Shown piece by piece: positions 24,908-64,000 of a stretch of DNA of 64,000 nt. Position 1 is the stretch's first letter. Each line of letters starts with the position of its first letter. The stretch is from Dehalococcoidia bacterium (GTDB lineage: Bacteria > Chloroflexota > Dehalococcoidia > Bin125), in contig CAXXRD010000001.1 in NCBI GenBank assembly GCA_963663895.2, positions 480,001 to 544,000 of the forward strand, given 5' to 3'. A program made the translations under genes and the position numbers. Under the pieces are notes generated by a model. That model saw nothing but the letters and a program-made list of their open reading frames with translations, had not been told where the DNA came from and made no database searches.

Positions 24908-24978
24908 TCGCCTGAGCACTGCCGTGCGAATTGGTTCGCAGTACAGTCCGTCACGGACGGAAATCGTGAGCCTACGCG
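24908..24978. repeat. Direct repeat copy B (partner 21314-21390), att-like site 3
   Basis: TCGCCTGAGCACTGCCGTGCGAATTGGTTCGCAGTACAGTCCGTCACGGACGGAAATCGTGAGCCTACGCG. Confidence 0.88.
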
Positions 24979-25025
24979 GATTCAAAATCCGTGCTCTCCG
25001 ACAGCATCACAGTCACGGGATATGC

Positions 25026-47494: not shown

Positions 47495-48359
47495 CGACGA
47501 CCGTCAATCGAGCGGCCCCGCCGACTACCGCGATTGGATCGGCCGGGAATGCCTGGAGCACGATACCGTCGCGCTGCAGCCGGTCCGCCGTCTCCTCGCC
47601 ACGCTCGACGATACGGACACGCAGCTCAACCTCGGCGATCCGCTGCCGCCGCTGTGGCACTGGCTGTTCTTTCTTCCCGAGGCGCCGCAGCGGGAGCTGG
47701 GCGCGGACGGTCATCCGCCCCGGGGCGGCTTCCTGCCGTCCGTCCCGCTGCCGCGGCGGATGTGGGCGGGCGGGCGTCTCCGCTTCCACCGCGCCGTGCC
47801 CATCGGGACGCCCCTGCGCCGGCTGGGCCGCGTGGCGGAGATCGCCGAGAAGACGGGCCGGACGGGGCCCCTCGTCTTCGCGACGGTCGACTACCGGCTT
47901 CTCGACGGCGACGCCCTGTGCATCGAGGAGCGCCAAGAGATCGTCTATCGCGACTTCGGCCCGCCGCTGGCGCCGCCGGAGCCTGCGCCCGCGCCGCCGG
48001 AAGCGCCGGCGGGCGCCTGGAGCCGCGAGGTGACGCCCGACCCGCGCCTGCTCTTCCGCTACTCGGCGCTGACCTTCAACGCCCACCGCATCCACTACGA
48101 CCGCTCCTACACCGTGGAGCGGGAGGGCTACCCCGCTCTCGTCGTCCACGGCCCCCTGATCGCCACCTTGCTCTTGGATCTGGTGCGCCGCAACAGCGAC
48201 CGCGCCGTGGCGCAGTTCGACTACCGGGCCAAGGCGCCGATCTTCGACACGCATCCATTCCGGCTGCTGGGCGTTCCCCACGCAGGAGAGCGCGTCGCAT
48301 TGACCGCGATCCGCTGCGACGGAGCGGTCGCGATGTCGGCGGAGGCGCTCCTTCGCTGA
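47487..48359 (+). CDS. meh: Mesaconyl-C4-CoA hydratase / itaconyl-CoA hydratase (double hot-dog)
   Basis: LPPLWHW, LG.DGHP.RG.F, PRRMWAGG, LFRYSALTFNAHRIHYD, LVVHGPL; overlaps the end of mct. Confidence 0.82.
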   Translation: MADDDRQSSGPADYRDWIGRECLEHDTVALQPVRRLLATLDDTDTQLNLGDPLPPLWHWLFFLPEAPQRELGADGHPPRGGFLPSVPLPRRMWAGGRLRFHRAVPIGTPLRRLGRVAEIAEKTGRTGPLVFATVDYRLLDGDALCIEERQEIVYRDFGPPLAPPEPAPAPPEAPAGAWSREVTPDPRLLFRYSALTFNAHRIHYDRSYTVEREGYPALVVHGPLIATLLLDLVRRNSDRAVAQFDYRAKAPIFDTHPFRLLGVPHAGERVALTAIRCDGAVAMSAEALLR

Positions 48360-48499
48360 CGGGCGCGCGCAGGGCCCTGCGGCCTCCAGGGTCCTGCCCC
48401 GCCCCCAGATCCAGACGGCGTTCACCCAGGCAGGCGACCACAGGGCGCGGCTCGGCTAGCCTAGAAGAGATAGATCTCGGCCCGGAGAGAGGATGCGCT

Positions 48500-49159
48500 G
48501 TGCCGCCGGCCGGCATCCCAGAGATCGTCATCGATCGACTGCCGCTGTACGTGCGGGCATTGGCGCTGCTTGCGACCAACGGGCAGGAGATCATCAGCTC
48601 CAAGGAGCTGGGCGAAGAGCTGGGCGTGACGCCGGCCCAAATCCGCAAGGACCTCTCCTACTTCGGCCGTTTCGGCAAGCAGGGCAGCGGCTACAACGTC
48701 GCCCAGCTGCTCGACGAGCTGCGGGAGGTGTTGGGGCTCACGCAGCGCTGGTCCATGGCGCTCCTGGGCGTGGGGCGCCTGGGACGGGCCATCCTGAGCT
48801 ACGGCGGCTTCGGCTCCCAGCAGCTCCACGTCGCCAAGGCCTTCGACTCCGACCCGGCGGTCATCGGGACGGAGATCGGCGGCGTGGTGGTGGAGGACAT
48901 CAAGGATGTCGCGGCCAGCCTGGAGGCCCTGCCCGTCGAGATCGCCATCGTGGCCGTGCCGCCGCACGCGGCCCAGCCGGTGATCGACGCACTCGTCGCC
49001 GCCGGCGTGCGCGCCATCCTCAACTACGCGCCGATCGCCGTGCGCGTGCCCCCCGGCGTCCGCTGCCGCAACGTGGACCCCGTCGTCTACCTGCACGCCA
49101 TGACGTACCACTTGAAGAGCGACGCCCGCGGCGGCTCCGACGCAGCCCCGGTTTCTTAG
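48500..49159 (+). CDS. rex: Redox-sensing transcriptional repressor Rex
   Basis: RLPLY.R.L, ISS.EL, QIRKDLSYFG.FG..G.GY, G.GRLG.A, ILNYAP. Confidence 0.95.
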   Translation: MPPAGIPEIVIDRLPLYVRALALLATNGQEIISSKELGEELGVTPAQIRKDLSYFGRFGKQGSGYNVAQLLDELREVLGLTQRWSMALLGVGRLGRAILSYGGFGSQQLHVAKAFDSDPAVIGTEIGGVVVEDIKDVAASLEALPVEIAIVAVPPHAAQPVIDALVAAGVRAILNYAPIAVRVPPGVRCRNVDPVVYLHAMTYHLKSDARGGSDAAPVS

Positions 49160-49174
49160 GAAGTTTCTTAGGAA
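49151..49174. repeat. 12-bp tandem duplication GTTTCTTAGGAA x2
   Basis: Exact copies at 49151-49162 and 49163-49174, overlapping the rex stop codon. Confidence 0.8.
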
Positions 49175-49282
49175 AAAGCCGGGCAAGCTTCCGGACCCTA
49201 GCCGCAGGACGGGTCCAGCGTCGGGTAACTCAACCAGCAGCGCGGTTTACATGCGGACGAACAAGGGCTTCCAAGGCACGCG

Positions 49283-52159
49283 TCACGCTGGCTGATCGAT
49301 CTCGAAGACCTTCAGCACTTCGTCGCCGTAGTGGTTGATCACCTTGACGGCGATCTTGCCGCTCGCGGGAGGCGGGAAGGGGCGACTGCGCGTCGCGTAG
49401 AGCGACGCCCACGCTTCCTCGTCGATCTCAGCGCGGAGCGCGCGCTTGAGCCGATCGTAGGGCTCGTCCGCGCCGGTGAAGTAGGCGTGGCGCACGAAGA
49501 AGCTCTGCTCGTCGTAGTCGCTGTCGATGAACCAGCAGGCGATATCATCCGTGGAGGCGGATCGCACCGCGCCGGTGGTCGGATCGTAGACATCGACGCC
49601 GCGTATCTCGACGACGATCGCGCCATCCGGCGTTCGCTCGATCTCAACATCCGGCTCGCCGAAGACGGTGAAGAGGTTGCCGGCGCCGGTCTTCTTCAGT
49701 AGCTCGTCGCCCATCGCGAGGTCGGGGTTCATCCGCGCGAGCATCACCGGCAGCTTGCCGTACTTGCGTTCGCTCTCGGCGACGGCGAAGCTGTCATCCT
49801 CGCCGCTCCCAGCGCCCGGCGCGGAGGCGAACTCCTCTGTTTTCTCGCCGGCGCGGGCGTCGAAGGCGAAACCGCAGACCACGAGCAGGTCGTAGCCGAG
49901 GCCGCGGATCGCCGCCTTCGCCGCCCGCTCCACCTGCTCCGCGCCGACCGTCCCGTGCTCGGGGCCGATCGAGACGGCGACGCGCCGGGGCGTGCCGCCC
50001 TTGTCCTCGAACTCGCCCTCGGCGTGAATCCAGGGATCGCCCGCCAGCGGGTCGAGGCGCGAGAAGACGAGCCGCTCGTCACGCTTCGTATTCTGCACGC
50101 CGGCTTTGCCGAGATTCTCGATGATGGTGGCGGCGAAGTCCGGGCGCACTGGATCTCCCGTCGCCTCGCGCACCGCGGCGGGCACATCCTCGTCGGCGGC
50201 GATCATGCGGTGCGGCGAGAGGCTCTCGACGGTGAACGGGCCGGCGACGCGCACACGGCTGCTGTCCTCGTAGGGTTGGTCGTAGAGGATCTCGCTCTCC
50301 GAGTTGCGGGCGATCGACTCGTCGATCTCACGCTGGCGGGCGAGGCGCTGCTCCCACCACTGCTTGTGCGCCGCAGCGGCCGGGGCCGGCCACGCCTCGC
50401 CGGCCTTGCGGGGAACCTCCCACTCCTCCCAGGACTCGCCCAACGCATCGTTGAGCGCCGCGCGCAGCGGTTCGAGGCGCTCCTGGAAGCGCTCCCAGAT
50501 GTCGTCGATCTCCTCGTTGTTGGCGATGTCGCGCAGTTGGATGTGCGGCGCGCGCCTGTAGACGAAGCCCTGCCGTACGTCGCCCGAGGTCGGGCCGTCG
50601 CCGGCGGGCCGGCCGCTGACCTTCGCCTCCTGCGCGCGGCCCTCGGGCGTGTCGGCAAGGTGATAGTACGGATAGCGGGCCGCCATCAGCCGCGTGCGCG
50701 CCAGCGTCAGCGCCACCCGCGACGTGTCGACCGTGATCCAGCGCCGTCCCCACTGCTCGGCGACGTACGCCGTCGTGCCGCTGCCGCACGTCGGGTCGAG
50801 CACGAGGTCGCCGGGATCCGTCGCCATGAGAATGCAGCGCTCGATGACTTTGTTCGTGGTCTGAACGACATAGATCTTCGGGTCGTTGAAACCCCCGGAC
50901 TGCGTATCGAGCCACATGTTCGTGAGCGCCGTAGCTGCGAACGAGTCCCAGTACAGCTTGTGGTGGACCGAGCTTCCTGAACGGAGAATCTTGCCGGCGC
51001 GGACCAGCCGGTCACGGCCGACACGCTTTACTTTCCAGTGCTGGTTCGCAGGGGGCTCGAAGACACTCCCCTCAAAGACGAACTCTTGGTCACCGGAACT
51101 TCGACCCTCGGACAAGAGCGGCCCGCTCCGGAATATTCGTGCTCCATCCGGGAGTGCTCTGCGGCGCTGCCGCTCATCTCTCGTCATGCGACGTATCGTC
51201 CCGTCAGACAGCTCTAGCAGCACGTAATTCGGGTCGGTCATCGGAGGCTCTGGTTGTAGCTGGAATATCTTTCTGGTCTTCGCAAGAGAAGCGTCACGTG
51301 CATACCAAAGCACGTGGTCGGAGACGTTCCCGATCGCAGCCTGACCGAAGCCTCCGGTCTTCTGGAACGTGACACTTGACACGAAGCCGTCACTGCCGAA
51401 GACCTCATCCAGCAGTGAGCGGACGAGATGCACGTTCTCATCGCCGATCTGGACGAAGATGCTGCCCGTCTCGTTGAGCAGCTCGCGAGCAACCCTGAAG
51501 CGATCACGCAGGTAGGTAAGGTAGGAGTGGATGTGGAGTTTCCAGGTGTCGCGGAAGGCGCGCACCTGCTCGGGCTGCCGCGTCGTGTCCTCGGCGCGGC
51601 CGTCGCGCACGTCGCGCTTGCGGGTGGAGACCTGCCAGTTGGAGCCGAACTTGATGCCGTAGGGCGGGTCGATATAGATGCACTGGACCTTGCCGCGCAG
51701 CCCCTCCTTCTCCGCCAGCGAGGTCATGACCAACAGTGAGTCGCCGAGGATCATGCGGTTGGACCAGTGCTGGTCGTGCTCGTAGAACTCCAGCTTCCGC
51801 TCCAGGTCGTCCAAGCCGTTGAAGTCGGCGAAGAGGTCGAGCTGGTGCGCGCCCTGCGGATGGCCGTTGCGCCGCAGATCCTCAATGATCGCCTGCGGCT
51901 GGATCTTCTCCTGGATGTAGACGGGCACGACGGGTACAACGAGGTCGTCGCCGTCGAGATCATCCTTGCCCTGCCAGACGAGCTGGGGGTCGAGCGCGGG
52001 ATCGCGCGGCCAGCGCAAGTGGTCGCGGATGTCCTCCTCTTCGTCGGGGATGAACTCGCGCAGCTCCTCGGTGGGGATGTTCTTGCGGCTGTCCTCGTGC
52101 CGGATCGCGTCGATCCGGGTTCGCCTCTTGCTCTTCTTGCCGCGCCGCGGCGCCATCAT
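49283..52159 (-). CDS. mod: Type III restriction-modification methyltransferase (beta class)
   Basis: NRMILGDSL, YIDPPYG, central TRD, LDPTCGSGTT, C-terminal IAVKVINHYGDE. Confidence 0.92.
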   Translation of the reverse strand: MMAPRRGKKSKRRTRIDAIRHEDSRKNIPTEELREFIPDEEEDIRDHLRWPRDPALDPQLVWQGKDDLDGDDLVVPVVPVYIQEKIQPQAIIEDLRRNGHPQGAHQLDLFADFNGLDDLERKLEFYEHDQHWSNRMILGDSLLVMTSLAEKEGLRGKVQCIYIDPPYGIKFGSNWQVSTRKRDVRDGRAEDTTRQPEQVRAFRDTWKLHIHSYLTYLRDRFRVARELLNETGSIFVQIGDENVHLVRSLLDEVFGSDGFVSSVTFQKTGGFGQAAIGNVSDHVLWYARDASLAKTRKIFQLQPEPPMTDPNYVLLELSDGTIRRMTRDERQRRRALPDGARIFRSGPLLSEGRSSGDQEFVFEGSVFEPPANQHWKVKRVGRDRLVRAGKILRSGSSVHHKLYWDSFAATALTNMWLDTQSGGFNDPKIYVVQTTNKVIERCILMATDPGDLVLDPTCGSGTTAYVAEQWGRRWITVDTSRVALTLARTRLMAARYPYYHLADTPEGRAQEAKVSGRPAGDGPTSGDVRQGFVYRRAPHIQLRDIANNEEIDDIWERFQERLEPLRAALNDALGESWEEWEVPRKAGEAWPAPAAAAHKQWWEQRLARQREIDESIARNSESEILYDQPYEDSSRVRVAGPFTVESLSPHRMIAADEDVPAAVREATGDPVRPDFAATIIENLGKAGVQNTKRDERLVFSRLDPLAGDPWIHAEGEFEDKGGTPRRVAVSIGPEHGTVGAEQVERAAKAAIRGLGYDLLVVCGFAFDARAGEKTEEFASAPGAGSGEDDSFAVAESERKYGKLPVMLARMNPDLAMGDELLKKTGAGNLFTVFGEPDVEIERTPDGAIVVEIRGVDVYDPTTGAVRSASTDDIACWFIDSDYDEQSFFVRHAYFTGADEPYDRLKRALRAEIDEEAWASLYATRSRPFPPPASGKIAVKVINHYGDEVLKVFEIDQPA

Positions 52160-55100
52160 CAGCCTCCCGCCGCCTGCGCCGGCAGGTCGCGCTCCGCGAG
52201 CCAGGCGCGCAGCTCGGTTCGCAGGTTCCACGGGTCGCGCGCCTCGAAGAAGGCCCAGCGGCCCCAGCCGCCGGCGTTGTTGAGGGCGGGCGCCCAGAGC
52301 GTGCGCGCCGCTTCCGCCTTGGCCTGCTTCTCGGGCAAGTCGCGCCCGCTGACCTCCAGGACGACGTTGAGCAGGTCGCCGGGGCCATGCCCGTCCTCAA
52401 CGTGGGCGATGAAGTCCGGATAGTACCAGCGCTCAACGCCGGCGTGCGTGTAAGGAATGCGGAACTCGCAGCCGTGGTTCTTCACGTAGTGCAGGACTTC
52501 CGGCATCGTCTCCAGGGTTTCGGCGGTTTTCTGCTCCCAGCTGCCGGTGTCGGCGACGACGTGCGAGACGTGGCACTTGGCCTCGTTCGTAACCATCAGT
52601 GGGCGCGTGGTTTGCAAGTCGACGAAGCGCGAGGAGGCGCGTGGGTTGTAGTGGTTGACGATCGGCTTGAGCCGCTCGGCGCCCGGCCCGGAACGCGCGA
52701 TCGAACTGAAGATGCGCTCGGCGGCGCGGTCGCCGAGCCCGCCGACGAGCAGCAGTTGCGGATAGACGTTGTCCTTGAGAACAACGCACTCGCGCAGCCA
52801 CTGGCCTGCGATGCGCAGCAGCGACGGGAATGCCCAAAGTTGCCAGTTACCATCGCCATCGCGGAACTTCCGCTCCAGCACGCGACGCGCGAGGTGGAAG
52901 GCGATCGTCTGCTCCCGTTGCGCGCGCAGTGATTCCAACGTGTGCCTCTTGTCTTCGCCGATGATCGAGGAAACGTGCGTCTCCGTTGGCACGTCCTGTG
53001 TAGAGATGGCCATCCGCGAGTCCTCGCCGAACTGAGCCGTCAGCCGCTGCGGTGCGATGTCGTAGCGGTAGCCGGTGAGGTTCGGGAACGTGATCTCGGC
53101 GTGAGCGCGATCCGGCAGAGCGCGTACACGGGCCGGCTGCGGGCCGTCAATGACGCCCGTCGCCGCGCCGGAGGCGGGGATGAACGAGAAGGGAACGCCG
53201 TAGACCTCAGCGTACTCAGCGTCGAACATTCCCTCCGTGTTCGGCTCGTAGCTGCGTCGTCGCAGCGCCCGTCCAACGACCTGCTCGCAGAGCAATTGCG
53301 TGCCGAAAGCGCGGACGCCGAGAATGTGCGTGACGGTGTTCGCGTCCCAACCTTCGGTCAGCATCGAGACGGAGACCACGCACCGGATGCGCTCGCCGAG
53401 GCGTCCCGGCTTGCCGACGGTGTTCATGACCTCGCGCAGTAGATCTTCATCGCTCAGCGCCTCGGCATCGCGGCCGGGATAGCGGCGGCGGTACTCACGC
53501 TTGAACTCCTCGATCTCGCGCTTCGCGACACGCTTAAAGGTGCCGCTCATCTGCTCGCCGGACTCCAGCTCGGCGCTGTCGATCAGGATCGTGTTCGGCC
53601 GATCGCTCCAGCGGCCATCCATCGTATTGCTGAAAAGCGGCAGGGCGCCGTCGTGAACGTACGGCCCGGCACCGTCCCCGCGCTGCTCCTCCCAACCGCC
53701 CACGAAGTCGTAAATCAACTTCGAGACGTTGGTGTTGTTGCAAACAATGATGAAGACGGGCGGCGAGCCGTGCTCGCGGGCGGCCGCATCGGCTTCCCAG
53801 CGCTCGTGGGAACGCTTGTAGTTGTCGTAGAGCTGGCGCAATGCCGCTTCCAGAGCTTCGGGTAAGTGCGGCTCGCCGGAGACCGTATCGACCTTACGCC
53901 CGTGCTTCGGAAGACCGTCGCGGATCTGGATCCAGAGGTTGCGATAGACCGGCAGATCCGAAGTTCCCGCATCGTCGCTAACCGGTACGCGTGGAACCTT
54001 CACGATCCCGCTCTCGATCGCATCGATCAGTGAGAAGTCGGAGACCACCCACGGGAACAACGTGCCTTCGTCGTAGCCGGAGCCGCGCAGAAAGAACGGC
54101 GTCGCCGAGAGGTCATAGACAACCTTGATGCCAAGTCTCCGCTGCACCGCCTGTAAGCCGGTGAGCCAGACGCGGGCATCCTCATTGCGCTGCTTGGCCT
54201 CGCGACGTTCGTCGGCGCTCAGTCGCTGCTTCTTCGCCGCCTCGCGCCCGCGGTAGCAGTGGTGCGCCTCGTCGTTGAAGACGATGATCTGCCGCTTCGT
54301 CCCGAGGCCGAGCTCGCGACGCAGACGCATCACCACCTGCGCCTCCGTCTCGACGTGTCCGACGCCTATGGGCGCACCGCCCGCCTCAATGATCGCCTGA
54401 TGCAATTTGCCGGCGTCGCTCGTCTTGCGCGGTTGGAACTTGTGGTAGTTGGCTATATGAATCTTCGCCTGCCCGAGCCGATCGGTGAGATCGGGCGGCA
54501 CGATGTCGCGCTCCGCGTAGTAGTTCCCCGGATCGCTCGGCAGTAGTACGCGCAGCCGGTCGCGGATGGTGATGCCGGGCGTCACTACGAGGAAAGCGTC
54601 GGTGAAGCGCGCGTCGCGTGATGCGGCGTGCTTGTTCAGCGACTGCCACGCGATCAGCATCGCCATCAGCACCGTCTTGCCGGAACCGGTCGCCATCTTG
54701 AAAGCGATGCGGTAGAGACCGTCGTTCCACTCGCGCGCGTGATCCCGCAGTTGGTTCTCGATCCAACTGTCGCCATGCCGCGACGCGACCTCTGCTAGGT
54801 AGATCGCGGTCTCGGCGGCTTCGATCTGACAGAAGAAGAGCTTGCGCTCACGGTCCGGCGACTGCCAGTAGTCGAGCAGGCGACGGGTGGTGCGCGTCAC
54901 ACCGACATAGCCACCATTCCGCCAGCGCACCACGCGTTCACGCACACGGTTGACGAACTCGTTCTCCTCGATACGGTCCTGCGTCCACTCTGCGGCAAGG
55001 GCAAGTTGCCCTTGGCTTCGCTTTGAAGCCGGCACCGGCACGAAATACGAACTCGGCCGCCGACCTTCGACGATGTCGCTTGTGATCCCTTGGTCGTCGA

Positions 55101-55170
55101 AGCGGAAGTGACGGCTCGGCTCCACGAACGGTGAATTGAGGACCGGGTTCTCGATGACGACGTTCGGCAT
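52159..55170 (-). CDS. res: Type III restriction endonuclease (SF2 ATPase plus PD-(D/E)xK; BPTD_3080-like)
   Basis: MATGSGKT, DEAHH, LSATP, MLTEGWD, QVVGRALR, YYPDF...LEVSG; res precedes mod with a TGA/ATG overlap. Confidence 0.92.
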   Translation of the reverse strand: MPNVVIENPVLNSPFVEPSRHFRFDDQGITSDIVEGRRPSSYFVPVPASKRSQGQLALAAEWTQDRIEENEFVNRVRERVVRWRNGGYVGVTRTTRRLLDYWQSPDRERKLFFCQIEAAETAIYLAEVASRHGDSWIENQLRDHAREWNDGLYRIAFKMATGSGKTVLMAMLIAWQSLNKHAASRDARFTDAFLVVTPGITIRDRLRVLLPSDPGNYYAERDIVPPDLTDRLGQAKIHIANYHKFQPRKTSDAGKLHQAIIEAGGAPIGVGHVETEAQVVMRLRRELGLGTKRQIIVFNDEAHHCYRGREAAKKQRLSADERREAKQRNEDARVWLTGLQAVQRRLGIKVVYDLSATPFFLRGSGYDEGTLFPWVVSDFSLIDAIESGIVKVPRVPVSDDAGTSDLPVYRNLWIQIRDGLPKHGRKVDTVSGEPHLPEALEAALRQLYDNYKRSHERWEADAAAREHGSPPVFIIVCNNTNVSKLIYDFVGGWEEQRGDGAGPYVHDGALPLFSNTMDGRWSDRPNTILIDSAELESGEQMSGTFKRVAKREIEEFKREYRRRYPGRDAEALSDEDLLREVMNTVGKPGRLGERIRCVVSVSMLTEGWDANTVTHILGVRAFGTQLLCEQVVGRALRRRSYEPNTEGMFDAEYAEVYGVPFSFIPASGAATGVIDGPQPARVRALPDRAHAEITFPNLTGYRYDIAPQRLTAQFGEDSRMAISTQDVPTETHVSSIIGEDKRHTLESLRAQREQTIAFHLARRVLERKFRDGDGNWQLWAFPSLLRIAGQWLRECVVLKDNVYPQLLLVGGLGDRAAERIFSSIARSGPGAERLKPIVNHYNPRASSRFVDLQTTRPLMVTNEAKCHVSHVVADTGSWEQKTAETLETMPEVLHYVKNHGCEFRIPYTHAGVERWYYPDFIAHVEDGHGPGDLLNVVLEVSGRDLPEKQAKAEAARTLWAPALNNAGGWGRWAFFEARDPWNLRTELRAWLAERDLPAQAAGG

Positions 55171-55284
55171 CAGTACTCCCAGCACGTTTGCGCAGCCGTA
55201 GAGGCGAAGATTACAGCCTCATGGGAGAAGAGAGGGGTCCGAGGATCAGTACCCATCCACGAACTGGCCGAGTCAGCCGCTTGC

Positions 55285-55306
55285 GTCACCACTGCACAAA
55301 CATCGG
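55285..55306. repeat. Duplicated dnaN 3' end (att site), partner 63214-63235
   Basis: GTCACCACTGCACAAACATCGG vs GTCACCATTGAACAAACATCGG (20/22); both encode PMFVQW* on the minus strand. Confidence 0.9.
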
Positions 55307-55527
55307 GATCAATGTTCCAAAACGACCAAAAGGGCAGTGTGTCATTCGCCTTGATTGTTCGTCTCTCGGGATGAGGTGCTCGAACCGGCTCCCTTCTCGG
55401 CGATCGCGCCGTCTATGCGTCGACGCCGACTGACCATGTGCTCGGGCGAAGAGCTGGGCATTCGGCGTCTCGCGAGGCTACCGCTCTGAGCCCGGCCCGC
55501 CTGTGGATGAAGGGGAAAACGTCCACG

Positions 55528-55575
55528 GTTCGCGACCATCCCGGTGGGCCTACACGTACTGTACTGCGAACTTTC
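55528..55575. repeat. att-like site 4: 44-bp imperfect palindrome whose right arm is identical to site 1
   Basis: GTTCGC-GACCATCCCGGTGGG-CC-TACACGTACTGTACT-GCGAAC, with outer GTTCGC/GCGAAC and inner GTG/CAC symmetry around CC (55549-55550). Confidence 0.8.
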
Positions 55576-55671
55576 TCGTGGGCGGTCTCGCTATAGACCG
55601 CTCTGACCAAGCGGAGACTGGTGAAGACCATCCCTCCAAGACAGTACCCGCGCTTCGACACTTCCCAACGC

Positions 55672-56179
55672 TCAGTCTGCGAGTGCCTTCAACAGAGCCT
55701 CGCGGGCGTCGGAGTAGTAGAGGATTGTGAGCTTCGTGGCCATCTCGTCGGAGAGGTCGTTCAGCTGTTTCCTGGCCGAGATTGACACCAAGAGGGCGCT
55801 GGCGGCCTTCTCGACAGCCAGTTCCGCGACCCTCACAGGGTCGTAGACCGGGTCGATCGCGCCACCGAGATTGAGTCCACCCACGGCGACCAAGGCCTCG
55901 CGCAGGCTCTTGCCAAGCAATGCACTGCACAAGGCGAGTAGCGCCGGAAGCCCCAAGAACGCCCCGCTGCGGGATGCGTCGAAACTGCGAAGCTGCACCA
56001 AAAACTCGTGCGCGCTTGGGCTCCGGTCGCCCACAAGCTCGTTGGCGCGCGCCATCAGGTTGCCTTCCGCGTAGCGGACGCTCTCGCGGAACGGTCCCGG
56101 AGCTGGGACATTCGTGATCCGTACACCGGAACCCGGGTTCACGTTGACGTCGATACGGTAGAGCCCGGCGTGCTCATCT
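55672..56179 (-). pseudogene. brxL: C-terminal Lon-like protease domain remnant of BREX BrxL
   Basis: DEHAGLYRIDV..., GGLNLGG, AVEKAA..LL, QL.DLSD, FY.D..AL.KAL-type ending; the N-terminal and AAA+ regions are missing, and the macB-like stop is 17 bp away. Confidence 0.75.
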
Positions 56180-56195
56180 GGTAGAGGGGTAGGCG

Positions 56196-57452
56196 CTACT
56201 CGTTGCGGAGCGCGGCGATCGGGTCGACGGTGGTGGCGCGATAGGCCGGGTAGCTGCCGCTCGCGAAGCCCACGCCTGCCGCCACCAGGAACGCCATCGC
56301 GATGCTCCAGGGCTGGATCAGTGTCGTCATCTCCTGGCCGCCCAGTTCGCGCCCGTCGACGGCGAGCGAGGCGCCGATGCCGATCGCGATCCCCACGACG
56401 CCGCCGAAGAGGCTGAGCGTCAGCGCCTCGGTCACGAACTGCTTGACGATGTCGCCGGCCGTCGCGCCCACGGCGCGGCGGATGCCGATCTCGCGGGTCC
56501 GCTCGGTGACGGAGACGAGCATGATGTTCATCACCCCGATCCCGCCGACCAGCAGCGAGATGCCGGCGATGCTGCCGAGCAGGATCGAGAGGGTGTTGCT
56601 GACCTCGGTAGCGGCGCTGATCAGGTCGTCCTGGCTCTGGATCACGAAGTCCGGCTCGGGCGTCTCGTGGAGGAAGAGCAGCAACTCGCTGACCTCGTCC
56701 TTGACGCGCTGCTCGTCGGCGCCGCTGGCGGTCTGGATGTCGATCTGCGTGACGCGCAGGTCGCCGGTGGGCGTGTAGAGGAAGCGCAGGCGGCCGGCGA
56801 CGCCGCTCAGCGGAACGAAGACCTGGTCGTTCGCCTCGCTCGCGCCGCCCTGCTCCTCGAGCACGCCGACCACGATGAAGGGGAACGTGATCCGCCCGCC
56901 CGCGAAGGAGAGCCGCACCTCCTGCCCGACGGGATCGAGGCCCCGGTAGAGGGTGTCGGCGACGCGCGCGCCCAGCGCGGCGACCAGCGAGCCGTCCTCG
57001 TCGTGCAACGGGGTGATGAAGGTCCCGGAGCGAATCCCCAGGTCGCGAACCTCAGCGTACGTGCTCGAGGTGCCGACGATCTCCGCGCCGACGTTGTTCG
57101 AACCGGCGACCGCCTGCGCGTCGACCGCGATCTGCGCCGCGACCGAGACGACGCCGGGGATCGCGTTGTCGGCGATCGCGGTCGCATCGCCCTGCACCAG
57201 CGTGGACTGCGCGAGCCCGCCGAGGCCTCCCGTTTGCGAGGTCGTCGCCGCCACGCTCGACTCGATGAAGATCAGGTCGGTGCCGAGTCCCCGGATCTGA
57301 TCCGTGACGCCGCGCTGCGTGCCCTGACCGACCGCGATCAACACGATCACAGAGCTGACGCCGATCACGAGGCCGAGCGAGGTGAGCGCGCTGCGCAGCC
57401 GGTTCGCGAAGATCGCACGCAGCGCGATGCGGAACGCGTCGAACGGGCTCAC
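56196..57452 (-). CDS. MacB/FtsX-family ABC permease
   Basis: NRLRSALT.LG..IGVSSVI, SLLVGGIGVMNIMLVSVTERTREIGIR.AVGA, YPA.RA...DPI.ALR.E. Confidence 0.93.
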   Translation of the reverse strand: MSPFDAFRIALRAIFANRLRSALTSLGLVIGVSSVIVLIAVGQGTQRGVTDQIRGLGTDLIFIESSVAATTSQTGGLGGLAQSTLVQGDATAIADNAIPGVVSVAAQIAVDAQAVAGSNNVGAEIVGTSSTYAEVRDLGIRSGTFITPLHDEDGSLVAALGARVADTLYRGLDPVGQEVRLSFAGGRITFPFIVVGVLEEQGGASEANDQVFVPLSGVAGRLRFLYTPTGDLRVTQIDIQTASGADEQRVKDEVSELLLFLHETPEPDFVIQSQDDLISAATEVSNTLSILLGSIAGISLLVGGIGVMNIMLVSVTERTREIGIRRAVGATAGDIVKQFVTEALTLSLFGGVVGIAIGIGASLAVDGRELGGQEMTTLIQPWSIAMAFLVAAGVGFASGSYPAYRATTVDPIAALRNE

Positions 57453-58156
57453 GGCACGGGCCCGTCCGCTGTCGCAGCCGCCACCGGGGCGCCGCTGTCC
57501 TCGATGATCCGTCCGTCGCGCATGCGCATGGTCCGGTTGGCATAGGCGGCGACCTCCGCCTCGTGCGTCACGAGCACGACCGTCAGCCCCTGCTGATCGA
57601 CCAGCTCGCTGAGCAGCGTCATCAGCTCGTGTTCGGTCGCCGTATCGAGGGCGCCCGTCGGCTCGTCGGCGAGTAGCACCAGCGGGTTCACGACCAGCGA
57701 GCGCGCGATCGCGACGCGCTGCTGCTCGCCGCCGGACAGCTCGGTCGGCAGGTGCGTGATGCGGTCCTGCAGGCCGACGCGCACGAGCGCCTCGGCGGCG
57801 CGCCGCTTGCGGTTGGGCGCACCCTGGTAGATCAGCGGCAGATCGACCTGCTCGAGGGCGGTCATGCGTGGCAGCAGGTTGTAAGACTGGAAGACGAAGC
57901 CGAAGGCGCTGCCGCGCAGCCGTGCGCGGGCGTCCTCGGAGAGCTGCGCGACATCGCGTCCCCCGAAGCCGTACTCGCCGCTGCTGGGGCGGTCGAGCAG
58001 GCCGATGATGTTCATCAGCGTGCTCTTGCCGGAGCCGGACTGCCCCATGATCGCGACGAACTCGCCTCGCCCGATCTCGAGGCTCACGCCGGCGAGGGCA
58101 TGCACCGCCGTCTCGCCGCTGGCGTAGATACGGGTCACGTCCTGGAGGTGGATCAC
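57449..58156 (-). CDS. MacB/LolD-type ABC ATPase
   Basis: GQSGSGKST, GFVFQSYNL, LSGGEQQRVAIAR, LADEPTGALD, VTHE. Confidence 0.95.
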   Translation of the reverse strand: MIHLQDVTRIYASGETAVHALAGVSLEIGRGEFVAIMGQSGSGKSTLMNIIGLLDRPSSGEYGFGGRDVAQLSEDARARLRGSAFGFVFQSYNLLPRMTALEQVDLPLIYQGAPNRKRRAAEALVRVGLQDRITHLPTELSGGEQQRVAIARSLVVNPLVLLADEPTGALDTATEHELMTLLSELVDQQGLTVVLVTHEAEVAAYANRTMRMRDGRIIEDSGAPVAAATADGPVP

Positions 58157-60624
58157 TGGCCGCCTCCGCCACCTCCACCGCCGCCGCCGAAGAAGCGGCC
58201 GGGGCCGAAGGCTGGGAGCTGCTGCTGCGGTTGCCGCTGTGTGGCGCTGAAGGCGATGCCCGCGCTATCCGCGCCGATCAGCAGCACAGCGCCGGCCTTG
58301 AGGCCGCTCGTGATCTCGACGTTTGTGCCGTCCGACTCACCGATCTCGACAGTCACGCGCTCGAAGGCGAGGGCGGCCGGGTCGTCGCCCGCGGCGGGCG
58401 CCGGGATGGTGACGAACCACGCGCCGTCGAGCTGGCGCACGGCGGCGACCGGGACGAGCACCGAGGGCTCGCGCAGCTCGGTTAGGATCGTGACGCTGGC
58501 GCTCATGCCGGGTGCGGGGAGCGGCCGGGCGGCGAGTGCGCCCTGCCCGGTTGCGCCTGGCCGGCCGTCGGCGCCTTCTCCGCCGGCCGCCCCGAGCACA
58601 CCCGCGGCGATCCGCTCGAGGAGCTGCGGCGGGATCTCGAAGCCCTCGGGCAGGTTCACGCCCTCCGGGAGCGGCTCGCCGGCCGCCAGCGCCTGCAGTA
58701 CGTCGCGGATGGTCGTGCCCTCGGGAAGTTCGATCTGGGCGAGCAGTCCGCCGCCGGCCCCGGCGCGGCCGCCTGCACCGCCACCTGCATCGGCTCCCGC
58801 AGCGCCGAGGATCGCCGCCAGACCCCCGGTCTGGTCGCTGAGGACGGCAATCTCGCTCGCGACCTGGGCGATCTCCGCTCCGGCGAGAATCCGCGCCTCC
58901 ACGTCGTACGTCACTACCCCCTGAGCGGCGTTCGGCAGGCGGCTGATCGACGCGATGCGCACCGGGTACTCGACGTTCTCGATGGCGTCGAACGATGCGA
59001 GACCGATCTGGCCGACCTCGAGGGCGAGCAGGTCCGCCTCGGTCACGGTAAGCGCGATCAGCATGCGGTCGGTGGTGCTCAGGGAGAACGCGGCGAAGTT
59101 GGCCGCCACGCGATCGCCGGGCTGCACGTTCACGGCCTCGACGATGCCGTCGAAGGGCGCAAGCACCGTCAGCTCCGCGAGGGCGGTGCGCGCCTCCTCG
59201 AGGGAGATCTCGGAGAGCCGCACGCTCTGCTCCTGCTGGGCGATCGCGTTCGCCGTCGCGCCCCCCGCCAGCTCGTCGTAGCGCGCCTGCGCGCTGGCGA
59301 GGCTGGCGAGCGCGGTCTCGAGCGAGGCGCGCGCCTGCTCGATCTCGCCCTCGTCGGCGGGTGCGCGCAGCTCAGCGAGGCGGGCGACGGCCGCAGCGTG
59401 ATTCGCCCGCGCCGCCTCCACCGACCGCTCTGCCTGGAAGCGATCCTCCTCGCTGGGCTCCGCGGTCAACTCGGCCAGGCGGGCGACGGCCGCGGCGTGG
59501 TTCGCCCGGGCCGCTTCCACCGACTGCTGCGCCTGGTAGCGGTCCTGCTCGGAGACCGGCGCGAGCAGGTCGGCGAGCCGCTCCTCGGCGGAGCCAAGCG
59601 TCGTGACGGCCGACTGCCTGGTCGCGTCGGCGCTGATGAACGCGACATTGGCGTTGATCAGAGCGTTCGCCGTGCGCTGATAGTTGTTCGACCTGTCCTC
59701 GAAGGAGTCGCGGAGCACGGCGATCTGCGCGTCGGAGAGCGGCAACGCGGCTGCGCAGGTCGTTTCGGTCACATCGGGAAGGTGGTCGTAGCCCTCGCAG
59801 TACGCCTCGAACGCGTTCCCAAGGGCGTGCCACGCGTCGTCCGCCCCACTGATCGCGCCAGAGAGCTGCGCCTGCGCCTGCGCCACGGCGGACCGCGCGG
59901 ACGCGATCTCCGTCTCGCTCGGGTCGGCGGTCAACGCAGCCAGCGCCTCCTCGGCGCTCGAGAGCTGACCGAGGGCGTTCGCCACCGCCTGCTCCGCGCT
60001 CGCCTGCGCGCTCGCCTCCGGCGGCTCGGACAGCCGCGCCTGCGCCTCTTCCGCGCTCGAGAGTTGCCCGAGGGCGTTCGCGACGGATTGCTCCGCGCTC
60101 GCCTGCGCGCTCGCCTCCGGCGGCTCGGAGAGCCGGGCCAACGCCTGCTCCGCGTTCACGACCTGCGCCTCGGACGATTCGATCGACTGCCTCGCGGACG
60201 CGATGGCGGACGCCTCGGGGTCGGCCTCGAGGGCGTCGAGGCGCAACTGTGCGAGGCGCAGCTGCACCTCCGCGGTCTCGACCCGCCGCTGCGCGTCGGA
60301 GTCGTCGAGCGTCGCCAGCGCGTCTCCGGCGCGCACCGTATCGCCGCTCTCCACGGCGACGGAGGCGACGATCCCGGCGGCGCCGAAGCTGAGGTTGGCG
60401 CTGCGCTCGGCCTCCGCCGAGCCGGACAGGTCGACCGTGGTGCTCAGTTGGCCCTCGACGGCTTCGGCACGCTGCGGCTCGGCGACCACCTCGGTGTCGT
60501 CGGGCTGGAGCAGCACGAACACGGCCACCGCCGCTGCGGCAATCGCCAGCGCGGCCGCCAGCACCAGCCAGCGCCTGCGCGAACGGCGGCCGCGGATCAG
60601 CAGATCGATGTCAACGTCGCTCAT
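58153..60624 (-). CDS. Very long membrane-fusion (MacA/HlyD-like) adaptor protein
   Basis: N-terminal TM helix, lipoyl halves (G.V..V.V..GD.V / APFDG.V), extended coiled coil with 33-aa repeats, GM(S)A.V.I, VP..AV. Confidence 0.88.
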   Translation of the reverse strand: MSDVDIDLLIRGRRSRRRWLVLAAALAIAAAAVAVFVLLQPDDTEVVAEPQRAEAVEGQLSTTVDLSGSAEAERSANLSFGAAGIVASVAVESGDTVRAGDALATLDDSDAQRRVETAEVQLRLAQLRLDALEADPEASAIASARQSIESSEAQVVNAEQALARLSEPPEASAQASAEQSVANALGQLSSAEEAQARLSEPPEASAQASAEQAVANALGQLSSAEEALAALTADPSETEIASARSAVAQAQAQLSGAISGADDAWHALGNAFEAYCEGYDHLPDVTETTCAAALPLSDAQIAVLRDSFEDRSNNYQRTANALINANVAFISADATRQSAVTTLGSAEERLADLLAPVSEQDRYQAQQSVEAARANHAAAVARLAELTAEPSEEDRFQAERSVEAARANHAAAVARLAELRAPADEGEIEQARASLETALASLASAQARYDELAGGATANAIAQQEQSVRLSEISLEEARTALAELTVLAPFDGIVEAVNVQPGDRVAANFAAFSLSTTDRMLIALTVTEADLLALEVGQIGLASFDAIENVEYPVRIASISRLPNAAQGVVTYDVEARILAGAEIAQVASEIAVLSDQTGGLAAILGAAGADAGGGAGGRAGAGGGLLAQIELPEGTTIRDVLQALAAGEPLPEGVNLPEGFEIPPQLLERIAAGVLGAAGGEGADGRPGATGQGALAARPLPAPGMSASVTILTELREPSVLVPVAAVRQLDGAWFVTIPAPAAGDDPAALAFERVTVEIGESDGTNVEITSGLKAGAVLLIGADSAGIAFSATQRQPQQQLPAFGPGRFFGGGGGGGGGGQ

Positions 60625-60688
60625 GGTCGTCTCTCACACCCCGATCGGAGAAGCTGGAACAGGTCGGCGCAACAGTGCACCGCGTCGC

Positions 60689-60735
60689 ATAACGCCCTCG
60701 TAACCTCGCGCGCTCCGTACGTTACGTTCGCGTTA
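60689..60735. promoter_or_regulatory. Two opposed OmpR/PhoB-type direct-repeat boxes in the divergent promoter
   Basis: TAAC at 60690 and 60701 (11-bp period); GTTA at 60721 and 60732 (11-bp period). Confidence 0.55.
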
Positions 60736-60786
60736 GGGTCGAAGGGGTAGCCTGCGTGTGGCCGGTGGGCTGCAGGAGCGACGCCT

Positions 60787-61443
60787 ATGCGCGTGCTGCT
60801 GGTGGAGGACGAGCGCGACCTCGCGAACGCGATCGCGAGGGGTCTGCGCCGCGACGGGCTCGCCGTCGACATCGCCTTCGACGGCGCCACTGCCCTCGAG
60901 AAGGCAACGGTGCACCCCTACGACGTCGTCGTGCTCGACCGCGACCTGCCCCTCGTCCACGGCGACGAGGTCTGCCGCGAGCTGGTCGCTGCCGAGGGCG
61001 ACTCCCGCATCCTCATGCTCACCGCCGCCGCCGCCGTGCACGACCGCATCGAGGGCCTCGACCTCGGAGCGGACGACTACCTCTCCAAGCCGTTCGACAT
61101 CGGCGAGTTGCGCGCGCGGATCCGCGCGCTGGGGCGGCGTTCGCAGCCGGCGGCGCACCCGGTGCTCGAGCGCGGCGGCGTGGTCCTCGATGCCGCGCGG
61201 CGCAGCGCCACGCGCGACGGGCGCGAGCTCGGCCTCACGCGCAAGGAGTTCGTGGTGCTGCAGGTGCTGCTCGAGGCGGAGGGCGCCGTCGTCAGCCCCG
61301 AGGAGCTGCTGGACCGCGCCTGGGACGAGCACACCGACCCATTCACAAACGTGGTGCGCGTGACGATCATGAAGCTGCGCAAGAGCCTCGGAGAGCCGCC
61401 GCTGATCGAGACGCTGCGCGGCGTCGGCTACCGCATCCTCTGA
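60787..61443 (+). CDS. OmpR-family response regulator (CutR/VanR-like)
   Basis: VLLVED, LDRDLP, LTA, GADDYL.KPF, winged helix LT.KEF...LR.VGY. Confidence 0.95.
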   Translation: MRVLLVEDERDLANAIARGLRRDGLAVDIAFDGATALEKATVHPYDVVVLDRDLPLVHGDEVCRELVAAEGDSRILMLTAAAAVHDRIEGLDLGADDYLSKPFDIGELRARIRALGRRSQPAAHPVLERGGVVLDAARRSATRDGRELGLTRKEFVVLQVLLEAEGAVVSPEELLDRAWDEHTDPFTNVVRVTIMKLRKSLGEPPLIETLRGVGYRIL

Positions 61444-62690
61444 TGCGCTTGCCGGGCGCCGTGATTCCCCAGCCGTCGATCCGGCTGCGCCTGACGCTCT
61501 GGTACGGCGGGCTGTTCCTGCTGGCGGGCACGGTGCTGCTCGGGCTCAACTTCGCGCTCGTTGCCCGTAACTTCCCCTCCGACGGGGCCGACCTGCGCGA
61601 GAACGTCGAGCGCCGCTTCGACCTCGATCCGGGCGAACTGCGCGGGGAGGTCTTCTTCGTCGTCGAGCGGCCAGCGACGCCGGGACGGTCGGTTGGTCCG
61701 CGGCGGGGTGTCGCCGCCACGCCGCTCTTCAACAGCGTCATCTCGCACATCAAGACCGACACCCTCCAGCAGATCGTCTGGCAATCGGGTGTCGCGCTCG
61801 GGCTGATGGCCGTGCTCTCGATCGGCCTCGGCTGGTTCGTCGCCGGGCGGATGCTGCGACCCGTTGAGGAGATCGCAGCCACCGCGCGCCGCATCAGCGA
61901 GGCGAGCCTGGAGGAGCGGATCGCCCTCGGCGGGCCGTCCGACGAACTCAAGGATCTCGCCGACCAGTTCGACGCGATGCTCGATCGCCTGCAGACCGCC
62001 TTCGAGGCGCAACGCGAGTTCGTCGCCAACGCCTCGCACGAGCTGCGCACCCCACTCACGATCATCCGCACCGAGATCGACGTCACCCTCGACGACCCGG
62101 ACTCCGGCCGCGAGCAGCTCGAACGGACCGCCGAGGTCGTCCGCCGTGCGATCGACCGCACCGAGGGCCTGATCGACCGCCTGGTGGTCCTCGCCCGCGC
62201 CGAGGAGCCGCTCCAGCGCGGCGAGGAGAGTGAGCTTGCCGACGCCGTCCGGCGCGCCCTCGACGCACGCGAGACGGAGATCGCCGAGCTGGGTCTCCGC
62301 GTCACGCTCGACCCCGGCGAGGCGACCGTCGAGGGCGACCTGATGCTGCTCGACCGGCTGGCCGGCAACCTCGTCGACAACGCCGTCGAGCACAACGAGC
62401 GCGACGGATGGATCGAGATCACGAGCGGACAGGACGAGCAGACGGTGACGCTGAGCGTCGCCAACGGCGGGCCGCTCATTCCCGAGGGCGAGGCGCCGCG
62501 GCTGTTCGAGCGCTTCGCACGGGCGGAGGGCTCGCGCACTCGCCCGCGCGGCGGCTACGGCCTCGGACTCTCGATCGTGCGCGCGATCGTGCGCGCCCAC
62601 CGCGGCGAGGTGACGGCGCGTGCGCTGTCCGAGGGCGGCCTCACCGTCGAGGTTTCGCTGCCCCGCCGGCGCCAGGGTTCGTCCCAGTAG
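61443..62690 (+). CDS. Sensor histidine kinase (2 TM, HAMP)
   Basis: FVANASHELRTPL, NLVDNA, LFERF, G.GLGLSIV; TGATG coupling with the regulator. Confidence 0.93.
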   Translation: MRLPGAVIPQPSIRLRLTLWYGGLFLLAGTVLLGLNFALVARNFPSDGADLRENVERRFDLDPGELRGEVFFVVERPATPGRSVGPRRGVAATPLFNSVISHIKTDTLQQIVWQSGVALGLMAVLSIGLGWFVAGRMLRPVEEIAATARRISEASLEERIALGGPSDELKDLADQFDAMLDRLQTAFEAQREFVANASHELRTPLTIIRTEIDVTLDDPDSGREQLERTAEVVRRAIDRTEGLIDRLVVLARAEEPLQRGEESELADAVRRALDARETEIAELGLRVTLDPGEATVEGDLMLLDRLAGNLVDNAVEHNERDGWIEITSGQDEQTVTLSVANGGPLIPEGEAPRLFERFARAEGSRTRPRGGYGLGLSIVRAIVRAHRGEVTARALSEGGLTVEVSLPRRRQGSSQ

Positions 62691-62703
62691 CGCCGCCGCG
62701 CCC

Positions 62704-63048
62704 TCAGCGCTCCATCAGCACCGCGCCCGCTCCAATACGCGGTCGAGGTCGATGATCACCGCGACGCCCCCAGGCGGTCCGGGTCGCGGTCGCGCTCAAG
62801 CCTGTGCGAGCCCTCGAAGATGGCGTCGCGGGCCTCCGGGTCGTCGACGATGCGTGCGCGGCCGTGGAACTGCCACATCTGGCGTTGAGCCGGGTGCGGT
62901 AGAGGAAGGCGATGCGCGGATTGACGGCGATCCGGCGCAGGATGTCGCCGGCCGGGTTCCGCACCCAGATCGCGAGTTGATCGGCACTGTGGACCTGCGT
63001 GCTGCCGTAGAAGGAGAGGCTCGGCTGGCCCTCGCCGTCGCCACCGAT
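62704..63048 (-). pseudogene. Frameshifted, 5'-truncated PPOX/pyridoxamine-oxidase-like gene
   Basis: GQPSLSFYGSTQV...AIWVRNP..., then another frame WQFHGRARIVDD...E..RDP, then VIIDLDRV; at least two frameshifts. Confidence 0.65.
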
Positions 63049-63240
63049 ATGCCACGAATGCTGCAACGGATCCGACGATGGATCGCCGAAGCCGACGGAG
63101 ACGATCTCGATCTACTGTTAACGGCCGTGGATGCGAAGGTCATAGCCTCGCGTGAACGGGCCGAGATTCGGGGCTCGGTACCAGCCTATGAGCAAGCTTC
63201 GCAGGCCGATTTAGTCACCATTGAACAAACATCGGCATGA
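63049..63240 (+). pseudogene. C-terminal relic of a large serine recombinase ending LVTIEQTSA, antisense-overlapping dnaN
   Basis: LQRIRRWI...DLLLTAVDAKVIA...IRGSVP...LVTIEQTSA* crosses the att copy. Family assignment is from recall of Chloroflexota recombinase termini and needs HMM confirmation. Confidence 0.6.
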
Positions 63241-64000
63241 TGACGTGGACGTAGTTCTCGCGCTCGTCGGGGCGGAACACGCCCGGATTCGAGGGGCCCG
63301 TCGTCTCCAACCGGACCTTCCCCTTCTCCAAGACCTGTAGCACGTCCTGGAGATAGCGGTTGTTGAAGGCGATGCGGCCCTCCTCGCCCTCGATGGCGGC
63401 ATCCATCTGTCCCTCGTGCTCGCCTTGCTCGTCCGCCCGCGCGGAGACGGAGACGCGCCCGCCGCCGTCCTCCGGGCGCAGCAGCACGCGCACGATGCCG
63501 CTGCCGTCACGCGCGAACACGGCGGCGGTCTTCACCTCGCGCAGGAACTCGCCGCCGTCCATGATCGCCCGCGTTTGGTACTCCGAGGGGATGAGTTGCT
63601 GGTAGCTGGGGAAGGTCCCCTGAATGAGCTGCGCCGTGAGCTCGATGTCGCTGAACTTGAGCAAGACCTGGCTGCGGGCGCTGTTGAGCTGCAGCAGCAC
63701 GGGCTCGTCCTGCTCCGGCAAGAGGCGCCCCAAATCTTGCAGGGCCCGCGCCGGCACGATGATCTCGATCGGCTCCGGCAATAGCTCCGCGATGTCGAGG
63801 TGGTAGACGGCCAGGCGAAAGCCGTCCGCGCCCGCCAGGGTGAGGCGGCCTTCCTCGATCTTGAGCTGCACGCCCGTCAGGACCGGCCGACTGTCGTCCG
63901 TGGCGGCGGCGAAGCCCACGTGCTCCACCGCCTCTCGCAGGGCCTGCGGCTCCAAGCGGATCACGTCCCCTTCGGTGATGGACGGGATCGGGGGAAAGTC
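63215..64000 (-). CDS. dnaN: DNA polymerase III beta clamp (5' part outside the window)
   Basis: DFP, FAAA.DDSRPVLTG, ADGFRLA, LI.G.FP.Y, IAFN.RYL.D.L, VIMPM. Confidence 0.96.
   Translation of the reverse strand, partial: DFPPIPSITEGDVIRLEPQALREAVEHVGFAAATDDSRPVLTGVQLKIEEGRLTLAGADGFRLAVYHLDIAELLPEPIEIIVPARALQDLGRLLPEQDEPVLLQLNSARSQVLLKFSDIELTAQLIQGTFPSYQQLIPSEYQTRAIMDGGEFLREVKTAAVFARDGSGIVRVLLRPEDGGGRVSVSARADEQGEHEGQMDAAIEGEEGRIAFNNRYLQDVLQVLEKGKVRLETTGPSNPGVFRPDERENYVHVIMPMFVQW

Follow-up and report, generated by a model that had tools for sequence, protein, structure and literature searches.

Why does the genome of a Dehalococcoidia bacterium encode the end of dnaN, the gene of its beta clamp, twice? 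The question arises from a stretch of 64,000 nucleotides (the window), positions 480,001 to 544,000 of contig CAXXRD010000001.1, which is C1:480001-544000 of the source genome G000, a 2.37-Mb assembly that is 91% complete. Among the genomes used for comparison, G001 and G002 belong to the same genus and G005 to the same family. Positions given without a contig are positions of the window. Very probably, two decayed islands stand here in tandem, of which the one nearer to dnaN occupies the interval between the two copies of the dnaN end, and each was inserted by a large serine recombinase (LSR) which targets the last codons of dnaN. Island 1, 7.9 kb in size, lies next to dnaN and island 2, which carries type III restriction-modification (R-M) genes, lies beyond it. 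The following features carry the argument; att denotes an attachment site and a relic is what is left of an integrase gene.

63215..64000, minus strand: dnaN (beta clamp), the C-terminal 261 of 377 amino acids, continuing past the window (Pfam DNA_pol3_beta, DNA_pol3_beta_2 and DNA_pol3_beta_3).
63215..63235, minus strand: attL core, that is, the live copy of the 21-nt dnaN end, with the predicted crossover at the CC of the Pro codon at 63234-63235 (pattern search; dyad symmetry of attP).
63022..63240, plus strand: relic 1, the last 72 codons and the stop of an LSR, antisense over the dnaN end and ending in ...TIEQTSA-stop (hmmsearch, tblastn).
55286..55306, minus strand: distal copy of the 21-nt dnaN end, read as the junction of the P arm of island 1 with the P' arm of island 2 and hence as a hybrid att site (pattern search; relic 2 adjoins).
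55177..55305, plus strand: relic 2, the remains of another LSR tail (about 43 codons), which terminates in the distal copy of the dnaN end (hmmsearch, E = 2.7e-6).

A pattern search of the window for the 21-nt end, which codes for PMFVQW and a stop, finds it at 55286-55306 and at 63215-63235 on the same strand, 7.9 kb apart, as the initial annotation of this DNA had it. One hundred shuffles of the window gave no match, and the whole assembly has the pattern at the same two exact places and at no others. The two mismatches between the copies fall on third codon positions and are indeed both synonymous: Val is GTG in the distal copy and GTT in the live one, and Gln is CAG and CAA, respectively. 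The live copy is the end of a dnaN gene for 377 amino acids (C1:543215-544348), the sole full dnaN match in the genome. Two further observations of the initial annotation could be reproduced. A plus-strand open reading frame (ORF) at 62620-63240 ends in ...LVTIEQTSA-stop and overlaps the live dnaN end by 26 nt, and the symmetry AACAT-N8-ATGTT is located at the distal junction, at 55299-55316.

From which protein does the overlapping reading frame derive? The C-terminal 90 residues of 23 intact LSRs adjacent to dnaN, all from genomes other than G000, were made into a profile, and all 1349 six-frame pieces of the window were searched with it. Relic 1 (63022-63237) matches this C-terminal profile with E = 6.6e-24, the best unrelated piece of the window with 0.27. 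Because the last seven residues of the relic are forced by the copy of dnaN, we repeated the search with a profile from which the nine C-terminal residues had been removed; relic 1 still scores E = 8.2e-19. By tblastn it is 55% identical over 67 amino acids to its closest intact relative, the LSR of G005 (518 amino acids), and 65% identical over 72 amino acids to a copy in G011. In the whole G000 genome the G005 enzyme matches only C1:543037-543231 (with its residues 537-601) and a different LSR on C3 at 27% identity. When three distant LSRs (those of G136 and G306 and a relic of G077) were compared with the window by tblastn, nothing was found at E <= 1e-2; the homology of the relic to LSRs is seen only with closer relatives and with the profile. 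Profile and tblastn together thus bear out the origin from a serine integrase which had been claimed for a relic of 63 amino acids. This size was close; the homology starts at 63022, giving 72 codons.

Little of the enzyme is left. Relic 1 retains 72 of about 520 integrase codons, and all catalytic and DNA-binding domains (three Pfam domains) are gone. Neither relic matches a Pfam domain, and no member of the Resolvase family (PF00239) or of the Phage_integrase family was found anywhere in C1:480001-544000; the Recombinase and zinc beta-ribbon domains are also absent from the window by Pfam. With no Resolvase catalytic domain in the window, we speak of the remnant of an LSR gene and not of a member of the LSR family. 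The stop codon of relic 1 sits in chromosomal dnaN sequence. At its other end, the remainder of the gene would be expected in front of the relic, next to the histidine kinase gene described below:

62691..63021, no strand assigned: 330 bp between the kinase stop and relic 1, the expected place of the rest of the integrase gene; no Pfam match of minus-strand ORFs even at E <= 5, and LSR homology stops at 63022.

A frameshifted pseudogene similar to pyridoxamine oxidases was considered for 62700-63110 on the minus strand and rejected, as none of five ORFs or pieces has a Pfam match (two of them searched up to E <= 5). Above 63022 this segment is more readily accounted for as the antisense strand of relic 1.

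Searches with the G005 LSR and with the profile found no integrase of the dnaN clade elsewhere in the G000 assembly. The only other serine-recombinase-like ORF of the genome, C3:2489-4048, codes for 519 amino acids, is 27% identical to the dnaN clade and does not lie beside the gene for transfer-messenger RNA (tmRNA). In this ORF the usual serine motif is not evident by eye near the N-terminus. With only 72 codons left and no clade member elsewhere in an assembly of this completeness, island 1 is fixed and unable to move by itself. The immobilisation by loss of the integrase, which had been proposed from the window, is supported by these figures and by the absence of all three Pfam domains.

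Is there a family of such enzymes which targets dnaN? In relatives, ORFs of 518-602 amino acids lie antisense against dnaN and overlap its end with their last codons. The intact dnaN-adjacent LSRs from G005, G136 and G306, three of three tested, have the domains Resolvase, Recombinase (PF07508) and Zn_ribbon_recom (PF13408). With the G005 integrase as query, 80 of 301 genomes of the class had matches at E <= 1e-30. Among the best 30 LSR loci the dnaN-end motif stands at the 3' end of the integrase ORF, in antisense overlap, in 22, and dnaN itself was confirmed by tblastn in 20, in line with the earlier proposal that the family is directed at the beta clamp gene. The 18-mer coding for PMFVQW occurs in 255 of 301 genomes sampled from the class (a tally that includes G259, flagged as unpublished, on which none of the claims rests); about 62 genomes by hand count have at least two copies and one has 13, and the reversed pattern, used as a control, has no match. 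Where positions are listed, the extra copies are mostly on the same strand and a few kb to tens of kb apart. The 13 copies of G118 are spread over C3, C5, C15, C25, C28, C29 and C30, with five on one strand within 34 kb of C28.

We also took a sample chosen by dnaN similarity alone. It comprises 69 named loci of metagenome-assembled genomes, all but two titled Dehalococcoidia, Chloroflexota, Chloroflexi or Chloroflexia. After removal of 11 loci with no recognisable live end and 10 with less than 2 kb downstream, 48 were usable. An LSR abuts dnaN in 8 of these and a displaced copy lies within 10 kb in 4, so that either is found in 12. Distances of 16-41 kb separate the live from the displaced copy in five intact elements.

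Is the distal copy at 55286 the end which dnaN had before island 1 came? The initial annotation rightly saw a second copy of the dnaN end here. This copy is, however, probably not the native end but a hybrid junction with an older island, because a second integrase-tail relic (relic 2) lies at 55177-55305. With the full profile relic 2 is the second-best match both in the window and in the G000 genome. It is 50% identical to relic 1 over 40 amino acids and also resembles the tails at junctions in G001. The GC-rich codons of the distal copy would therefore be those of the earlier island's arm and not those of the native gene.

A different history, in keeping with the initial annotation, would be a single 7.9-kb LSR island which entered a virgin dnaN, the copy at 55286 being the original end and the R-M genes native DNA adjoining it. 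Such a history would agree with there being just two copies in the contig and with the codons of the distal copy, which are nearer to GC-rich host usage. It would also agree with the weak score of relic 2 (E = 0.0072) once the profile columns for antisense dnaN are left out. Against it, the DNA past the distal copy is unlike the flank which follows the dnaN-end copy in G002, G006 and G001, and which in G000 is found at C2:74832. Instead, the DNA past the distal copy reads as an LSR tail. The R-M genes are moreover not matched in G001 or G002, and their homologues in G005 (65-76% identity) lie between the second and third dnaN-end copies of that genome, inside its second dnaN island. We consider the single island quite improbable and keep to the array of two, whose distal part is as follows.

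49283..55185, minus strand: cargo of island 2, type III R-M genes mod (49283-52231) and res (52159-55185) (Pfam N6_N4_Mtase and ResIII).
49144..49282, no strand assigned: left edge of the array; synteny with the genomes of the same genus ends near 49143-49205, with no clear att remnant (sequence comparison).

The order from dnaN is thus relic 1, island 1, the hybrid att site, relic 2, the R-M island 2 and the core genome. Left of about 49143 core synteny resumes, and 35286-49143 matches G001 at 93-95% and G002 at 86-89%. A candidate for a degenerate att at 49230-49270 was discarded, the likeness being too weak to claim. Elsewhere in G000, C2:74830-74918 and C2:83176-83438, at a distance of 8.3 kb, each contain the dnaN-end motif together with the conserved arm of the islands. 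At C1:792260-792326 of the same genome an island arm is joined to sequence not like dnaN, and the same junction is conserved in G001:C15; it may be a secondary site or the relic of a rearrangement. In G002 (C1) an intact dnaN end is followed, at a distance of 490 bp, by a degenerate copy of the att region in inverted orientation, after which synteny passes to DNA located some 120 kb off in G000. A further att copy of G002, on the other strand, is found about 120 kb away, and the synteny with G000 is shifted. Such an arrangement points to inversions between att copies close to the origin.

Where does the exchange of strands take place? At the CC of the Pro codon the similarity between the two junctions of island 1 comes to an end. 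On the upstream side dnaN continues in the live copy and the island's own arm in the distal copy. LSR sites characteristically show imperfect dyad symmetry about a non-palindromic central dinucleotide, and partner sites may be identical over a short distance only. In 11 rebuilt attP sites the dyad symmetry is highest between the two Cs of this codon (CCN), with 10.55 of 24 pairs vs 5-9 at the other centres tested. From the position of this symmetry we infer a crossover at CC; the island would supply the last base of the Pro codon, the last five codons of dnaN and the stop. This agrees with the restoration of dnaN by the entering island which had been proposed, here through an arm with synonymous changes.

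A duplicated gene end could also be a by-product of homologous recombination or of a tandem duplication, with no recombinase taking part. Two loci among the relatives are of this kind. In G032:C131 (4004-4626) an insert of about 520 bp, low in GC and with two small ORFs, is surrounded by an 86-nt duplication which includes dnaN upstream of the core; this points to a mode of insertion different from that of the LSR islands. In G139:C27 (3867-5600) an insert of 1.7 kb lies between dnaN-end copies which are identical over at least 51 nt to the stop, the upstream arm included, and this duplication does not fit the LSR junction pattern. In the window, in contrast, the similarity breaks off at the CC centre, the distal copy has the conserved island arm upstream and not dnaN, and both copies adjoin LSR tails. 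For the window such an origin is thus hardly credible.

We suggest that islands of this family enter and accumulate in the following steps. In the free circular element attP would lie inside the 3' end of the integrase gene itself. On its other strand, the integrase-side arm would code for MFVQW and the stop, preceded by the final base of the Pro codon. Recombination at the central CC of the Pro codon would join the body of dnaN to this island-borne end, and for this reason dnaN would stay intact with only synonymous differences. The previous end of dnaN would be displaced to the far side of the island. In the window the type III R-M island would have arrived first and the 7.9-kb island later, into the regenerated site, so that the island nearest to dnaN should be the younger one. 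Both islands would afterwards have lost all of the integrase but the tail (72 and about 43 codons). We infer this order of arrival, as we do the position of the crossover and the status of the transporter and regulator genes, described next, as the original cargo of island 1.

What did island 1 bring with it? Between its two junctions it has the following features.

55307..55548, plus strand: conserved end of island 1 on the distal side, comprising the P arm of attP with some 200 bp past it (87% identity to G001:C5, 72% to G002).
55672..56142, minus strand: ORF for 156 amino acids with sub-threshold similarity to Lon/ChlI proteolytic domains, probably a gene fragment (Pfam ChlI 22.2 bits, cut-off 27; Lon_C 17.9 bits, cut-off 21.1).
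56196..60624, minus strand: ABC exporter of the tripartite type with a MacB/FtsX permease (56196-57452), an ABC ATPase (57449-58156) and an HlyD-like adaptor (58153-60624) (Pfam).
60787..62690, plus strand: two-component system with an OmpR-type response regulator (60787-61443) and a HAMP/HisKA/HATPase_c histidine kinase (61440-62690) (Pfam).

The cargo was not found in G001, G002, G005, G006 or G011, which have no more than short matches to the ABC and regulator genes, at the level of paralogues (65-75% identity). The 7.9-kb content is therefore not common in synteny to these five relatives, a point on which the initial annotation had made its reading depend. The absence of the cargo in the relatives searched is a direct result, as are the repeats, the homology of the relics and the association of the family with dnaN. 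What the relatives have in common with island 1 is 60-240 nt at the start of its distal end (87% in G001) and the region of the relic (74%), and three further copies of the distal end exist in G000 itself. The window contains no tRNA or tmRNA, and Rfam has no match at E <= 0.1 in 48000-64000.

The islands could be real and the block of ABC exporter and two-component genes (about 56193-63011) nevertheless a later entrant, which removed most of the integrase gene when it came. Contigs of public sequencing runs bear on this. Runs X19 and X20 have contigs identical to the flanks (54652-56164 and 63011-64000) at a depth of 5-14, whereas the block (56193-63011) is at a depth of 37-59 in contigs with 1-2% differences. 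The public contigs break at 56164-56193 and at 63011, the latter within 11 nt of the start of relic 1. The GC content of 0.70-0.73 in the block compared with 0.61 for 55001-56000 would also suit a later arrival. Contigs, on the other hand, cannot give the copy number and may stem from another strain with the same island, and there is neither a repeat nor a transposase at the edges of the block. We regard a later entry as rather unlikely and take the block to have come with island 1. Both junctions are matched exactly by contigs of two public runs, which may be the source sample. A joint of about 55306 to about 63236 is not among the joints listed from the short contigs of four public runs over 54300-64000, of which the best holders may be the source sample.

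As an observation in its own right, the contigs of four public runs give the block a higher summed depth and 1-2% differences compared with the exact flanks, and parts of it are present at 90-99% identity in sponge-metagenome runs. The transporter and regulator block seems to be common to other members of the community. Far from the array, at 21000-25000, the GC content of the window falls to 0.54-0.62 around an ORF for 876 amino acids (22020-24650, minus strand), which may be another foreign segment.

Several points weigh against an array of two LSR islands. No intact integrase, excised form or empty site was seen for island 1. Neither genome of the same genus offers a simple empty site: the DNA that follows dnaN is wholly unlike in G001 and has been rearranged in G002. 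By sequence comparison, no att could be recognised where island 2 ends on the left. The flank which ancestrally followed dnaN is found on a different contig (C2:74832), so that either the array was rearranged or the assembly is broken there. The score of relic 2 without the antisense-dnaN columns, already given, belongs here, and so does the depth of 37-59 of the block in X19 and X20. The dnaN-end motif is missing in 8 of the best 30 LSR loci, in at least one of which the ORF runs off the contig end. The GC content of 0.70-0.73 across the cargo lies above, and not below, the genome mean of 0.665. Finally, the crossover position is a prediction from symmetry and was not mapped.

What happens to the integrase gene when its own 3' end contains the site of recombination? 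In the 22 loci with the overlap, the integrase reads across the dnaN end 15 times in the frame of TIEQTSA and three times in each of the other two frames, and one case is unclear. In the rebuilt attP of seven intact elements the integrase ORF runs 21-44 codons past the centre. Among 39 non-redundant displaced copies, 12 have a motif [V/I/L/F]PF about 12-18 codons into this continuation, read in the frame of TIEQTSA; the two elements lowest in GC do not have it. The Pro codon is CCG, CCC or CCA in the copies read. This looks like a coding constraint in one sub-clade. Relic 2 of the window likewise reads on through the junction into the arm of island 1: the first 66 nt of the distal end continue the integrase frame for 22 codons (55306-55371) up to a TGA at 55372-55374, and the window's version of the motif is VSF. 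There are 14 copies of this P arm in four genomes. The frame is open in all of them and the stop is at the same place in 12. The entropy by codon position over these 14 genus-level copies is flat (0.60, 0.48, 0.58), which means no coding signal at the depth of the genus.

These observations lead us to a tentative idea, which we hold with considerable doubt. In one sub-clade the real end of the integrase might be encoded beyond attP, as 21-44 extra codons with a conserved [V/I/L]PF-x-L, and be present only in the circle or beside the arm of a neighbouring island. The form integrated next to dnaN would be truncated and would end in antisense-dnaN codons. Integration would then flip a switch in the activity or directionality of the integrase, and the att copies near the origin might drive inversions among relatives.

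Are such islands known? In the same bacterial class, the ssrA islands of Dehalococcoides are arranged in tandem and bounded by 20-bp repeats of ssrA, with a serine recombinase of 540 amino acids, DsiB, beside attL, according to McMurdie et al. (2011; PMC3146451). There, dsiB is described as always overlapping attL with its stop outside the island, and it is suggested that DsiB may be complete only on the circle or beside another island (PMC3146451). The dnaN islands resemble the ssrA islands in having no evident transfer genes, in stacking in tandem downstream of a single-copy essential gene and in their direct repeats of about 20 bp of the gene's 3' end. The integrase gene overlaps attL in both, as seen with relic 1 at the live end, with relic 2 at the distal copy and in 22 of the best 30 loci. 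The target differs: it is dnaN, and the sole tmRNA gene of G000, at C3:137883-138240, is far from the locus. Since dnaN, unlike ssrA, codes for a protein, the arm that overlaps it must maintain the codons, which it does by synonymous changes. Of the six-gene integration module of the ssrA islands (DsiB, DsiA, RecF-like, ParB-like and others) none is among the Pfam-annotated ORFs of 55307-63214.

Large serine integrases of phages, such as those of Bxb1 (in groEL1), A118 (in comK), SPbeta (SprA, in spsM) and phiC31, use short att sites with dyad symmetry and a 2-bp crossover. They share with the dnaN family the architecture of Resolvase, Recombinase and zinc ribbon and the choice of targets within protein-coding genes. 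They differ in that they usually interrupt or alter the target and have attP beside int, whereas the dnaN islands restore the gene and their int ORF crosses attP. Islands which restore the end of the housekeeping gene they enter, there at the 5' end of the gene, were reportedly described by Farrugia and co-workers in 2015 for integrases specific for dusA. For the mycobacteriophage BPs, Broussard and co-workers are said to have reported in 2013 an integration-dependent immunity in which attP lies inside the phage repressor gene and integration changes the C-terminus of the protein. Both the dusA elements and BPs differ from the dnaN islands in using tyrosine recombinases. In staphylococci, SCCmec is inserted by CcrAB at the 3' end of orfX (rlmH); here, too, LSRs insert cargo islands into a protein-coding gene that is conserved and single-copy without inactivating it, and tandem or composite elements occur. 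SCCmec differs in having two recombinases or CcrC, in carrying the recombinase gene inside the element and in having no read-through of att; the host phylum and the target are also different. SCCmec and CcrAB are named as a parallel in the ssrA island paper (PMC3146451).

Searches of the full-text literature found no paper which names dnaN as an integration target; the mentions of dnaN in PMC5812530 and PMC1933208 are unrelated to this. The main text of an LSR survey (PMC10083194) does not contain 'polymerase III', 'sliding clamp', 'beta subunit' or 'Chloroflex', and its supplementary target tables may bear on the novelty. In our view dnaN is a new target specificity of a known kind of element.

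In summary, the window itself contains two dead islands and is, taken alone, an ordinary result. With the family to which they belong, an essential replication gene joins the short list of protein-coding genes that are repaired when a serine integrase enters. The natural pairs of attB and attP and the intact enzymes of the relatives are candidate tools for site-specific integration, and an integrase ORF which spans attP gives an idea of how such elements might sense their state of integration. For the Dehalococcoidia, the end of dnaN is a main hot spot of gene gain, with at least two copies in about one in five of the sampled genomes and up to 13 in one, and this hot spot carries defence systems, such as the type III R-M genes of the window, and transporters.

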